From assembly GCA_951406725.2 (NCBI GenBank), contig OX597822.1, forward strand, positions 108,438,001 to 108,502,000: a DNA stretch of 64,000 nucleotides, written 5' to 3'. Made by a program: the position numbers and the translations under genes. Every line of letters starts with the position of its first letter. Within the stretch, counting starts at the first letter, position 1. This stretch comes from Octopus vulgaris (lineage: Eukaryota). Below the pieces are notes generated by a model. It did no database searches. It saw only the letters and a program-made list of their open reading frames with translations, and had not been told where the DNA came from. Of the stretch, positions 48,209 through 54,049 are shown piece after piece.

Positions 48209-48395
48209 TAATCTGCCTTGGGTTAAAGTAGTAGTAATATTCATCTGCCACGTTGATGTGGCTACTTGCTTTAGTGTACAATTTAGTACACGTTACTACT
48301 CCATCTCTTCTTAAAATTTAATAAAGATAGATATATTTACATCATTTACGTTATTTACATTTTGACGTATATTTGTCCTCATCTTGTTTGTTTTT

Positions 48396-48441
48396 AACAC
48401 AACGTTTCGATTGATATACCCTCCAGCCTTCATCATGTGTT
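48396..48441 (-). ncRNA. Minimal type I hammerhead (C3 mutated)
   Basis: Minus strand: aacac ATGATGA a ggctg-gagggtatat-caatc GAAAC GTT gtgtt; perfect 5-bp stem I. Confidence 0.7.
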
Positions 48442-48618
48442 TTGGGGAAATTAATCATTCCTAAGGTATTTTTCGATGTTTGTTATTATTATTATTATTA
48501 TTATTATTATTATTATTATTATTATTATTATTATTATTATTATTATTATTATTATTTATTATTATTATTATTATTATTATTATTATTATTATTATTATTA
48601 TTATTATTATTATTATTC

Positions 48619-51547
48619 AGTAGTTTTATTTTTATAGCGTGTTTTCACTTCACTACCGAGCGCAGCTCTGTGTGCCTTGGGTATGTGCTGTGATTTGTTG
48701 TGATGCTCTGATGGTTATTGTATGGAAAGTGTTCTGCGTAGGATGTGTGCAGTGCCTAGTAGTGCAATTTTCTGTATGTTATATGTGTTTGTAAGTCCTG
48801 GTGTTTTTGTTATGTATTTGTCTGAATATTTTTTTATCATGCCTAATGCACCTACTATGATAGGAATTGTTTCTGTTTTCAGGTTCCACATTCTAGTTAC
48901 CTCTATTTCCAGGTCTTTGTATTTTGAGAGTTTCTCCTTTTCTTTTAGAGACACGTTGTCATCTGCCGGTATTGATACATCAATTAGAAAGTATTTTTTT
49001 TCTTCATGATCTCTGACAACTGTATCTGGTCTGTTGGCCTTAATTTCTCTATCTGTGTGTATCGGCATATCCCAGAGTATGGTTGCTTTCTCGTTTTCTG
49101 TGACCTTTTCTGGTGTGTGCCTATACCATCTTTTTTCTGTTGTTATTCCATAATGTTGGCATAGCTTCCAATGTATGTAGGTTCCAACTCTGTCATGTCT
49201 GTGAATATATTCCTTCTTAGCCAGGACTGGGCAGCTAGAGATAATATGATTTATTGTTTCTTGTCCATCTCCACATATTCTACAGTTACTTGTAATATTT
49301 CTTTTCATTACATGTTTTTGGTAATTTCTGGTGGGGAGGCTTTGGTCTTGTGCTGCAATTAAAAATCCCTCTGTTTCTGCTTTGAGTCCTGAGCTTCTCA
49401 ACCATTGCTGGGATTTTTCTTTGTCTATTTCTTTTGCGTTTAGTTTAGTGCAGTATTTACCATGAAGGGGCTTTTCTTGCCATCGTTTTATCATGGCTCG
49501 TTGCTGTTCTATTTTTAGTTTGGATTTCATTTGTTTTATAGCTTTTGTTGTTTCTTCATCATCTTCTTCTTCTTCTTTGTGTTTATTAGGTGGTATGATT
49601 TCTCGTTTGTATTTGTCAGCTTCCTTAAATAATGAGAACAGTTTTTTGTTTTCTCGTGTTTTGCTGCTATCTGGATCAGTTTTCCTTCCTTCTGAAGTAG
49701 GTATTTTTGCAGTCCTATGGTGGTTATTTTATAGTAGTTTTCCAGCTGTATAAGGCCTCTACCACCTTCTATACGTTGTATATATAGTCTTTCTATGTCA
49801 GATTTTGGGTGATGCATCCTAGATCCTGTCAGTATTTTTCTTGTTTTCCTATCTATTTTGGACAGTTCATTTCGTGTCCAGTTAAGGATATTGTAGCTGT
49901 AACTTATAACTGGGACAGCTAAAGTGTTGATACATATTATCTTGTTTTTAGCATTGAGCTCTGTTTTTAGTATTGATCTAACTCCTCTATAATATTCTTT
50001 TTTTATTTTCTCTTTCATTTGTGTGTGTTGTGTCTTATCTAGTTCATGGATTCCTAAGTATTTGTAAGTTTGGCTTTGGTCTAATTCTTTTATTTCATTG
50101 GTTTTATCTAGTGTGATGTTGTTACTCTTAACTAGTTTTCCTCTTTTCATGGTTACTTTGGCGCATTTTTCTAATCCAAATTTCATATCTATTTCTTTGG
50201 TGAATCCATGAACTGTCTTTAATAGTGTTTCCAGCTGTTTGTCATTTGCAGCGTATAGTTTTAGGTCATCCATATATAAAAGGTGGCTGATCGTTTTGCC
50301 GTAACATTTATATCCGCATCCAGTTCTATTTAGCATATCAGATAGAGGTGACAGTGCCAAGCAGAAAAGGAGTGGAGAGAGAGTGTCTCCCTGGAATATT
50401 CCTCTTCTAATGGGGATGTCTTTGGTTTTCATGAGTCCCTCTTTTGTTTGGAGGTGTAGGACTGTTTGCCATTTATTCATAGAGTGCTCTATGAATTTTA
50501 TGATTGTTGGTGCTACTTTGTTAATGGCTAGTGTTTCGAGGATCCATGTGTGGGGGATGCTATCAAACGCCTTTTTGTAGTCAATCCAGGCCATACTGAG
50601 GCCTTTCTTCTTTCTGTGGCTGTCTTCAGTTACGGCTTTATTAATCATTAGTTGATCTTTACAGCCATATGAGCCCTTGCGGCATCCTTTCTGCTCTTCT
50701 GGGAACAGTTTGTTTTCGTCCAGGTGCTTGTTCAGCCTTTGCGATATCACTGCAGTAAATGCCTTGAACATAGTAGGGAGGCAGATTATTGGTCTGTAGT
50801 TTTCTGGTTTTGTTGTTTCATTTGATTTGGGAATTAAGATGGTTTTCCCCTTCGTGAGCCATTCAGGCATTGTCTCTGGCTCTGCTAGTATGCTGTTAAA
50901 GTTTTCAGCCAGCTTTTTGTGCATTCCTGTTAGATATTTCAACCAGAAGTTGGGGATCTTGTAATGCCCAGGTGCCTTCCAGTTGCTTAGTTTTTGCAGT
51001 GCCTGGGTGACCTCTTCAGTTGTTATGGGGGTTCAAAGTTGTTCAGATGCCGAGTTTGTTATTTTCATACTCCTTTTTTTTTGCTGTTCGTTCGCCGACC
51101 ATATTTCTTTCCAGAATTCTTCCAATTCTTCTGCCGTTGGTGCTGCAGTGACTTCTATTTTATTTTTGCCCAGTTCTTTGTAGAACTTTTTGGGGTCGGA
51201 GTTGAACTTTTTGTTCTGTTCAAAGAAGCGTTGGCGTTTCTCGTACCGGCGGATCCTTTGAGCTTTGGCAAGGATATCTTGCTTCAGCTTTTCTTTTATC
51301 TCCGGCAAATCTTTTTCTGTGATGTTATATTTGCGGAGCATTTTTGTTCTCTTTTTGTTGCTCAGTAGCGTTGCTTGTTTGCTGATTTCATTAAGAATCG
51401 ACAGGTCTTTTCTAATTTTTTAAATTTTGTTTTGGATGTTATTTATCCACAGGGTTTGTTTGGGTGGTGGTACTCCTGTTTGGGCGGGTTTGGGTGAGTA
51501 TCCAGCTTCTTTTGTGGCTGCAGTGGCTGCTGCGTATATCAAGTCAT
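48619..51547 (-). mobile_element. R4/Dong-clade non-LTR retrotransposon, 5'-truncated and frameshifted (RT + CCHC + restriction-like endonuclease)
   Basis: NYRPIICL, EQKGC, WIDYKKAFD, GIFQGDTLSP, YMDD; CRICG..ETINHIISSC, RHD, NRPD, IDVSIP, KLSKYKDL; (TAA)n on both sides; AATAAA near the 3' end. Confidence 0.92.
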
Positions 51548-51655
51548 TTATTATTATTATTATTATTATTATTATTATTATTATTATTATTATTATTATT
51601 ATTAGTAGTAGTAGTAGTAGTAGTAGTAGTAGTAGTAGCAGTAGTAGTAGTAGTA

Positions 51656-51722
51656 TTCATGTGACTGCCTGGAATCGAACTCGGAATTTTGGGGTTTATA
51701 GCCTGCGCTCTTAACCACTACG
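51656..51722 (-). promoter_or_regulatory. tRNA-like Pol III internal promoter (A and B boxes)
   Basis: Minus strand cgTAGTGGTTAAGAgcgcagg...ccGAGTTCGATTCCaggc; imperfect cloverleaf, not a functional tRNA. Confidence 0.7.
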
Positions 51723-54049
51723 GAATTTGCCGAAACGTTGTGTTAACAACAGACAATATGAGGACAAATATCCGTCAATTGTATATAATGTAAATAATGT
51801 ATATAATTCCTTATCTCTTAAATATAGAGCTCTATAGATATATTTGATTATAAATGGAGGCACCCCATGGGACGACCGTGATTAGATATTTCCATTATCA
51901 ATATCACCGTTGTCATTAATTTTATTATTATTACTGCCGTTATTGTTAGCGCCATCGCTTTTATAAATATGATTTGTATATATATATATATATATTCAAT
52001 TCGTCCTTAGTCGAAAGACACCTGTTTTTATGTCCTGTTATTATTTTTATTGTATTCTTATTATATTTATATTTGTGTAACAACGTCGGTTCATTCCGTT
52101 CTTGTTTTTGTGTGCATTTGCTGCTTTTTTCCATGGAATCTAATGCTCTTAGCTTAGTTTTTCTTTGGGGCTGGCCAGATTGGACCAATCTCAATCATAA
52201 TCAGCCGAAATTGCGATAGTAGTAGTAGTAGTAGTAGTAGTAGTAGTAGTAGTAGTAGTAGTAGTAGTAGTAATGATAGGCCCGCTCGCAGACGACTGAA
52301 CAGGCAAACCCACAAAGTTTACTTGGTGATGAGAGGAATGTCTGGTCACCGTGCAGGAAGAAAAAACAAGACCCGTCAAAAGAGAAATAAGAACTGAAAG
52401 TACCTGAACAATTCCGATGTAACCAGACACGCTTGATTCGAGAAAAAAAAGACAAGAATTGCTAACAAAAGGTGAGTCGGAAGAAGCATAATGGATAGCT
52501 GTGTCTACAAATGTCACAGCTGAGGACGTTGATAATGAAAGTGATGAACTTGTGGCAAGTGGAGCGAACGAAAATGAGGTCAGAAGTGAGTCAGTGGTCA
52601 GTGTCTTGCAGGATAATGGAACGAGTGAAAAAAAAGATGAGTAGTGGGATAAACAAATGCAAGAAAAGGGTGACGTGGAACAAACATAAGACTAAAGAAG
52701 TCAGAGAGAACATCTCTGAAGAAATGGACAAAAGCGATGTTAGTGTTACGGAAAGCTAAGAGAGTGGAAATTATATCCAATACAAAGAAACCTATTGGTT
52801 CTACGACTGAGTTTCTTGCAAGGAAAATAGGATTTATAAATCAATTAAATGAGAAAAGTGGGATGAACCATATGTAAGAGAATAATTAGAGAATGAATTA
52901 GGGAAATAAGCTAGCATATTAAAATCTTAGCACGTAAAAAGAGTGTGGAAGTTATTCTACATACATTGGTGGTATATTTTCATGGCACGCGTCAGGATGA
53001 AAGGCATTTCGGGTGATAAACCATTCTTTATATATATATATATATATATATATATATATATATATATATATATATATGTATGTATGTATGTATGTATGTA
53101 TGTATGTATGTATGTATATGCTGGCAGAAGTACCCGGTAATTCGCGGGAAAGCGAGGCTTGTCCCTTGGTTCCATTCTCATAATTGTTTCCCTAATCCAG
53201 TAATAACAATACAAAGTATGTAGCCCTTAAAACAGTTTTTGTTCATTTACAGAGAATATCGAACTGCTTTACAGAGGATCTTGTTTTCATGAATTCCCAA
53301 TAAGTTATGAATACTCAAATTCTTAAATCAGTTATGTAATAACATGAAATTAGTTATCCGATAGTAACAATTCAATTAGAATAGTCCTGAATGCGTTCCT
53401 TGATTATATAGAACGTAGGAGGAAATACTAATAAGGTATGTATACTAAAATCGTGAAGTGTGTTCCATAATAACAGGCTAGTCAAATATGAGATAATAAA
53501 CAATTCAAAGTAAATAACTCTGAAAAGGGCTGTTGTGCGTTCCCAGAGAATATTACCCTCAGGGACCTAGTGTTGGTATACGTCACTAACCGAAATAAGT
53601 GCATCTATTGTTATGGAAAATACTATTTACTCGTTTAATGGGTGTACTGGATAAATTGCGAAAATAAATCTAACAGCTCAAATACTAAGAAATGAGCATG
53701 CTCAATTTGAATTATACCAAATACTTTGGGAAAATGAACGGGCTATTTCCCTTGGCTCCATATAAGGATCCCTTCCAGTGGTGAATGGGTTATTTCCCTC
53801 GGCTTTTAAAATAAAATTTATTATATATATATATAAAAGTTTCTCTTCCAGAGGCCCTGACTTTTTTTTTAGCAATCTGAGCATGCCAGATAAAACGATG
53901 TAGGAAGAGTTAGCTAACAACTCCACAAACACACCCACAGACAGAATTACCCACATATGTAGTATATATATATACTCTAAAGTATTTATACTTCTTTGTA
54001 AGTGAGTTATAAAGATTTCTTTCAATGTCCTTCGCCAAGTATAACGTTG

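Follow-up and report, generated by a model that had tools for sequence, protein, structure and literature searches.

A tRNA-like segment in the hammerhead-bearing terminal repeat of an Octopus vulgaris Penelope-like element likely acts as an internal RNA polymerase III promoter

Short interspersed elements (SINEs) are taught as RNA polymerase III (Pol III) passengers of long interspersed elements (LINEs), and autonomous elements as RNA polymerase II (Pol II) units. A locus in a 64,000-nucleotide stretch of Octopus vulgaris contig OX597822.1 (the window, hereafter) raises the question of where a repeat belongs that combines a tRNA-like head with A and B boxes, a simple-repeat linker, a hammerhead ribozyme motif and the tail of a Penelope-like element (PLE), with an inverted copy of the tail in front and a LINE in the middle. 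A sequence-only reading had taken it for a composite SINE, driven by Pol III, processed by the ribozyme and bearing a Penelope-type end. We find that the head, an (AAT)n linker, the hammerhead and the tail are almost certainly the pseudo-long terminal repeat (pLTR) of an autonomous PLE of ~2.65 kb that encodes a reverse transcriptase (RT) and a GIY-YIG endonuclease. The window feature is read here as a 5′-truncated, head-to-head insertion of this pLTR, later split by a young LINE, with the tRNA-like segment likely an internal Pol III promoter; we give this reading a probability of roughly 0.6.

Loci carrying the repeat connect it to coding sequence on both sides. In L046 and L047, sequence coding for an RT thumb and a GIY-YIG-like domain lies upstream of the head, and among 29 loci picked by their RT, 22 continue into the head, 6 end before the end of the open reading frame (ORF) and 1 has a partial head. 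From the other side, 30 loci were picked by the 5′ region of the ORF, and in 5 of them head, linker and pLTR body run directly into the ORF, forming partial tandems (pLTR examples are L132, L139, L143, L151 and L153, and also L224). The element thus ordered reads stop codon, a spacer of ~30 nt that holds a hairpin arm, tRNA-like head, (AAT)n, ATG, hammerhead, two preferred 3′ ends and the remaining ORF; the hammerhead and tail encode the protein N terminus, and the head lies 3′ of the stop codon. Its majority consensus of ~2.65 kb contains one ORF of 839 amino acids, obtained by reading through one homopolymer of uncertain length, which begins before the hammerhead.

The consensus ORF matches Pfam RVT_1, with YVDD at 540 and CxC at 736, and is 56% identical over residues 11–835 to a natural homolog, P0003, whose N terminus bears the same hammerhead-coded peptide. 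Nearly all of the 56 homologs are annotated with PF00078, PF28514 or PF26215. The GIY-YIG profile had no match in the Pfam copy searched, and the domain is assigned from motifs and homologs; a PDB sequence search with the protein gave weak RT matches only. Since the consensus has no CX2-5CxxC linker before the endonuclease, a criterion for Penelope/Poseidon elements (PMC8557442), the linker features point to a PLE of that type. When the whole genome (G000, 2.8 Gb) was searched at the protein level for further PLE families, this same family came up at 30 of 30 loci, so the controls were the window LINE ORFs and metagenome PLEs instead of a PLE from the same genome. Divergent RT fragments, 25–38% identical to the PLE protein and probably from other PLE clades, occur in L094:6-710, L066, L003 and L092.

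The sequence-only reading had attributed mobilisation to PLE rather than LINE machinery and supposed a PLE with the same hammerhead and tail. Both ideas hold up: such an element exists, an autonomous one bearing the whole unit, and the 3′ ends of the copies are PLE start sites within the ORF 5′ region. The idea of a separate composite SINE with a borrowed PLE tail fails, the head being included in the pLTR of the autonomous element. In the window, the head, linker, hammerhead, inverted arm and LINE all lie where that reading had put them:

51834..51845, minus strand: target site duplication (TSD), upstream copy, 12 bp; its first bases are possibly part of the element's 9-bp repeat at the opposite end
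51729..51835, plus strand: inverted 5′-truncated arm, from the 3′ strand of hammerhead stem II to the long 3′ end, including the ~35-nt PLE 'tail'; 92.5% identical to the consensus
51656..51731, minus strand: tRNA-like head of the pLTR, beginning at about tRNA +2; 88% identical to the family consensus
51725-51715, minus strand: A box of the head, altered, at the junction with the inverted arm
51680-51671, minus strand: B box of the head, intact
51548..51655, minus strand: (TAC)n(TAA)n linker, 5′ part; across the family this linker is (AAT)n and varies in length
48618..51547, minus strand: Dong/R4-type LINE, inserted in the linker and no part of the PLE
48483..48617, minus strand: (TAA)n, comprising the LINE tail and the 3′ part of the linker
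48339..48480, minus strand: pLTR body, the 5′ end of the PLE ORF, with its first ATG at 48458-48456; it stops at the short 3′ end
48396..48441, minus strand: minimal type I hammerhead, carrying mutations here; the cut is predicted to fall between 48401 and 48400
48327..48338, minus strand: TSD, downstream copy, 12 bp

A single 12-bp repeat (51845-51834 and 48338-48327) encloses the whole structure, in which the inverted arm is long and the direct arm short. The head is joined to the inverted arm through 3–4 nt of microhomology, and the body is 94% identical to the consensus, with a 12-nt deletion. An inverted copy of the tail had been noted upstream of the head; it is present, over the full span of the arm listed above, and matches the direct arm with 82% identity over 94 nt (E 1e-20). 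It had also been credited with restoring stem II pairing, which it does not do in the transcript because it lies on the other strand; it preserves only the ancestral state. The window hammerhead itself has its first core C changed and two mismatches in stem II, and neither ARAGORN nor Rfam called a tRNA or a hammerhead in the window.

The interrupting LINE, 2.9 kb long, is 5′-truncated and frameshifted, and encodes an RT, a CCHC finger and a PD-(D/E)xK-like (restriction-like) C terminus; with its (TAA)n end it has the features expected of a Dong/R4 LINE, the clade to which it probably belongs. Its copies are 97–100% identical (40 scored) and end in (AAT)n, as seen after all 16 printed copies (19 fetched). 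The LINE is younger than its host, since the PLE parts of the window are only 88–94% identical to their consensus. Dong-like LINE sequence also adjoins other copies of the pLTR, in L057 and L009; in L057 it follows the (AAT)n linker, which makes this linker a recurrent LINE target.

Copies without the LINE are abundant. Exact-match k-mer counts over the whole genome gave 2,166 matches for a 33-mer of the hammerhead and 0 for its reversed control, and uninterrupted copies such as L008 were recovered by both tail and head searches. After duplicates were removed, and among loci not picked by the ORF, the body lies directly downstream of the head in 80 of 102 head-bearing arms. The contiguity of head and hammerhead on which the sequence-only reading depended is therefore found elsewhere, and these counts and this fixed order show that the arrangement did not arise by chance. 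Counts of 20-mers were 6,592 for the body, 5,148 for the head, 1,024 for the spacer and 800 for the ORF end; exact-match rates vary by motif (0.28–0.69 in copies picked by the ORF), and 20-mer and 17-mer copy counts are for that reason only rough, as is the resulting estimate of ~20,000 arms in the family. Tandem forms were also noted: six matches to the pLTR hairpin motif at 149–150 bp spacing in G000:C2:16238330-16239095 form a head-to-tail array built from part of the pLTR, which may be a satellite or resemble a retrozyme, and L154 and L155 hold 327-bp tandem repeats of the PLE ORF 5′ region.

The ends of the copies carry the signature of PLE insertion. The 3′ ends fall in two clusters, at consensus positions ~140–164 and 190–204, with few between, and an optional PLE tail of 30–40 nt has been tied to two RT start sites (PMC11167929). 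A 9-bp unit of variable copy number, in frame with the ORF (consensus 130–163; window 48360-48339), falls at the short 3′ end. Truncated PLEs have been described before as a source of inverted hammerhead pairs (PMC4209133, PMC8557442), and an inverted 5′ copy had been named in the sequence-only reading as a PLE hallmark; 53 of 109 loci not picked by the ORF contain a head-to-head pair, 58 pairs in all, of which 46 combine one long and one short end. TSDs, which had been expected to be absent, are not: besides the 12-bp TSD of the window, flanking repeats of at least 8 bp occur at 28 of the 58 pairs, as against 2.4% of mismatched control pairs. The one-long, one-short ends and the TSDs of ~10–13 bp fit priming at both DNA ends. 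Drawing on the published start sites (PMC11167929) and these end statistics, both cut DNA ends would prime cDNA, one per RT start site, and the two cDNAs would join through microhomology, leaving an inverted arm and a TSD. At roughly 20,000 arms, this family offers a dense natural dataset on how PLEs insert.

The hammerhead is a predicted ribozyme: its core pattern, for which the minimal type I descriptor of PMC4209133 was used, is intact in 60 of 137 arms whose selection did not rely on it, and the same motif occurs in related pLTRs. Ribozyme processing as proposed in the sequence-only reading is largely wrong, most copies having come from uncleaved RNA. Since a cleaved transcript would have its head cut off from the reverse-transcription start, and the two are still joined in most copies, processing is not the main route. 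Although many of the 293 body arms were picked by body or hammerhead sequence, 206 of them have their start upstream of position 21, which means that most templates had escaped cleavage. A modest excess of 5′ ends just past the predicted cut (22 in positions 93–110 versus 7 in the preceding stretch, P = 0.004, the interval having been chosen after the data were seen) suggests occasional cleavage of templates.

What is unusual in this PLE is the A/B-box segment at the Penelope promoter position, the Penelope promoter having been located in the same part of the pLTR (PMC2377424). The head is 73 nt long, and both boxes match in the consensus. The best of 30 tRNA loci from six isotypes in the genome is a tRNA-Arg, which agrees at 49 of 73 positions (score 63.5 versus ~19 for shuffled sequence). 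Related pLTRs were inspected in metagenome contigs, and all 11 (9 distinct) lack the box pair and are T-rich over the same interval; a relaxed ARAGORN run on 80 metagenome loci gave noise and was not used. Taking signed positions relative to the tRNA-like +1, copy number steps ~5-fold at the 5′ edge of the head: the 17-mer at +2..+18 has 4,752 matches, by a pattern that allowed CpG decay, versus 886 for that at -18..-2. The 5′ ends of the 102 head arms tell the same story, with 83 at -7..+17 and 12 at -8..-27; the stretch -28..-117 has none, the remaining 7 lie in the ORF, and the peak is at -7..+8. Among the 30 copies extending further than -18, the ends are spread smoothly, from -20 to past -1500.

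A second line of evidence comes from Pol III terminators. The sense strand of the consensus contains 13 T3 runs and not one T4 over 2.65 kb (codon shuffle, P = 0.026; dinucleotide shuffle, P = 0.064); T3VT2 and T2VT3 are also absent, and with them included P falls to 0.009 and 0.024, respectively. The copies hold 29 T4 in 80.6 kb, with no site common to more than 2 of 66 copy segments, a scatter as expected from mutation. Related ORFs of at least 400 codons, from 41 metagenome loci (39 of the 80 were left out as too short), have 396 T4 against 364.5 expected, and 40 of the 41 have at least one. The Pol III drive of the sequence-only reading is plausible on these two grounds, the step at the edge and the absence of T4. 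Pol III would start just upstream of the tRNA-like +1, by a few bases. In any pLTR it would produce an RNA of ~270 nt that holds the reverse-transcription start sites and would be copied in SINE fashion by the PLE protein; in a partial tandem, transcription could continue across the T4-free ORF. For the short copies, we think it likely that the segment works as such an internal promoter. A bolder version, in which the Pol II promoter was swapped for a tRNA-derived Pol III promoter that transcribes the whole terminator-free 2.65-kb ORF from an upstream pLTR, with every lone pLTR a ready-made SINE moved by the same protein, is tentative and seems to us the less probable course of events.

Several observations weigh against Pol III use. 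The head is not scored as a tRNA by ARAGORN or Rfam, a single intact-frame copy (L218) has 3 T4 where 3.1 are expected and hence no deficit, and the deficit in the consensus is modest by dinucleotide shuffle. No transcript start was seen when three raw RNA runs and one contig set were mapped on L067, where depth is equal on both strands, with read-through from many copies and no pile of starts or ends, reads that are uninformative on expression or start site. Pol III RNA is uncapped, and the processivity of the enzyme is held to keep such elements short, which speaks against Pol III as the maker of the mRNA, and autonomous partners have been argued to need Pol II (PMC10886601). The short copies also have no subfamily of their own. 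The element could then be an ordinary Pol II-transcribed PLE that captured a tRNA or SINE head in its 3′ untranslated region (UTR) as a passenger, the short copies piling up by fold-back or annealing of cDNA at a hairpin. A hairpin of ~10 bp does span -12..+10, straddling the very edge at which 5′ ends pile up; perfect head-to-head palindromes are numerous, with 38 of the 83 edge arms in head palindromes and 5 more carrying fold-back remnants; the equal age of short and long copies and the borderline T4 deficit suit a passenger too, as does the internal, TATA-less, LINE-like promoter of the D. virilis Penelope (PMC2377424). Against the hairpin stand the peak of ends, which lies past its copied 3′ arm, and the 40 of 58 arms that have neither head palindrome nor fold-back remnant and still end at -7..+17 (103 arms counted). 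Both boxes are intact in the consensus, and the terminator-like runs missing from the element contrast with the T-runs in which related pLTRs are rich. We consider a passenger head rather unlikely.

An independent, non-autonomous SINE family, with its own master copies, a tRNA head, a borrowed PLE tail and processing by the ribozyme, is largely refuted, and we hold it very improbable. It would explain why short head-to-tail copies outnumber ORF-linked ones ~5-fold or more, why 5′ ends cluster at the tRNA edge and why a few lie past the predicted cut. The head is carried by the autonomous element itself, however, and short and ORF-linked arms diverge equally from the consensus (6.0% versus 6.4%, P = 0.53) with no diagnostic substitutions; because they share sequence and age, there is no separate SINE lineage, and the uncleaved body arms speak against processing. 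Per-column differences between short and long arms were rejected as alignment or selection noise, none being a shared alternative base. As a SINE would, the repeat has a tRNA-related 5′ head with A and B boxes; it is not an independent non-autonomous family, and in place of a LINE-shared 3′ end with a simple-repeat or A-rich tail it ends at PLE start sites. Nor do its copies form the head-to-tail, non-coding tandems of retrozymes. That unrelated repeats came together by chance in a microsatellite might be argued from the simple-repeat linker, which attracts insertions, as the LINE shows; this reading is refuted by the fixed order of head and body and by the TSD shared around the entire window structure.

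If the internal Pol III promoter is real, a PLE with a tRNA-type promoter in its own pLTR would blur both the SINE/LINE and the Pol II rules, and a route would lead from PLE termini to hammerhead repeats of the SINE-like and SM-alpha-like kinds. In the bolder version, a SINE and its partner would be united in one sequence, and Penelope machinery, not that of a LINE, would drive a SINE-like element. Should Pol III use not hold up, what is left is an ordinary, well-described PLE with a captured tRNA remnant. Repeat libraries likely file the pLTR copies as SINEs.

Other repeats populate the window. A fragmented LINE at 56746-61077 (minus strand) carries a Myb/SANT-like ORF, an AP endonuclease and an RT, and a further broken RT-bearing LINE fragment lies at 41467-43399 (minus strand). 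A 182-bp repeat at 31009-31376 is a tandem dimer (95% match) that recurs in many fetched loci. Just outside the TSD, at 48151-48208, is an imperfect palindrome of ~58 bp, 83% self-complementary and possibly a miniature inverted-repeat remnant; a short repeat at 52131-52216 (minus strand), adjoining a (TAC)19 run, is ~90% identical to stretches in L034 and L023.

Among known systems, tRNA-derived short repeats of octopus named OK, OR1 and OR2 were reportedly described by Ohshima and Okada in 1994. The likeness is by description only; OR2 has been cited as a CORE SINE, and catalogues may already list the short form among the octopus SINEs. In the available portions of the literature searched, with subscription papers, Repbase and Dfam outside the search, no PLE was found reported to carry a promoter of tRNA or Pol III type. 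The closest relatives in architecture are PAc of Anolis and other Penelope/Poseidon PLEs, which share the single ORF with RT and then a C-terminal GIY-YIG-type domain, heavy truncation, pLTRs from partial tandems and the inverted 5′-truncated copy (PMC11167929, PMC8557442), as well as the two RT start sites with their optional 30–40-nt tail and, in PAc, an ORF start that overlaps a minimal hammerhead (PMC11167929). The octopus PLE differs from these, as far as they are described there, in that an A/B-box segment and (AAT)n fill most of its 3′ UTR, its sense strand is T4-free and its 5′ ends pile up sharply at the tRNA-like segment. Non-LTR retrozymes and non-autonomous PLEs (MRC1) are likewise short pLTR-related units thought to be moved by PLEs (10.64898/2026.07.22.740005; PMC8557442); the retrozymes form head-to-tail tandems (10.64898/2026.07.22.740005), whereas the octopus copies are dispersed, head-to-head and flanked by TSDs, and a term search of the available text of that preprint found no tRNA or promoter terms. 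Similar to the octopus unit, Schistosoma SM-alpha and Sj-alpha are short dispersed repeats with a Pol III-type promoter followed by a hammerhead, but their units are non-coding tandems and cleavage strips the promoter from single copies (PMC6765202), whereas the octopus unit lies within a coding PLE and its copies retain the promoter-like head. Cassandra, Helenus and Ajax (TRIMp3) also have a Pol III promoter derived from a small RNA within a terminal repeat; these LTR elements are non-autonomous, and Pol II is argued to be needed by their autonomous partners (PMC10886601), whereas the octopus segment sits in an autonomous element, and the terminal repeat that holds it is a pLTR.

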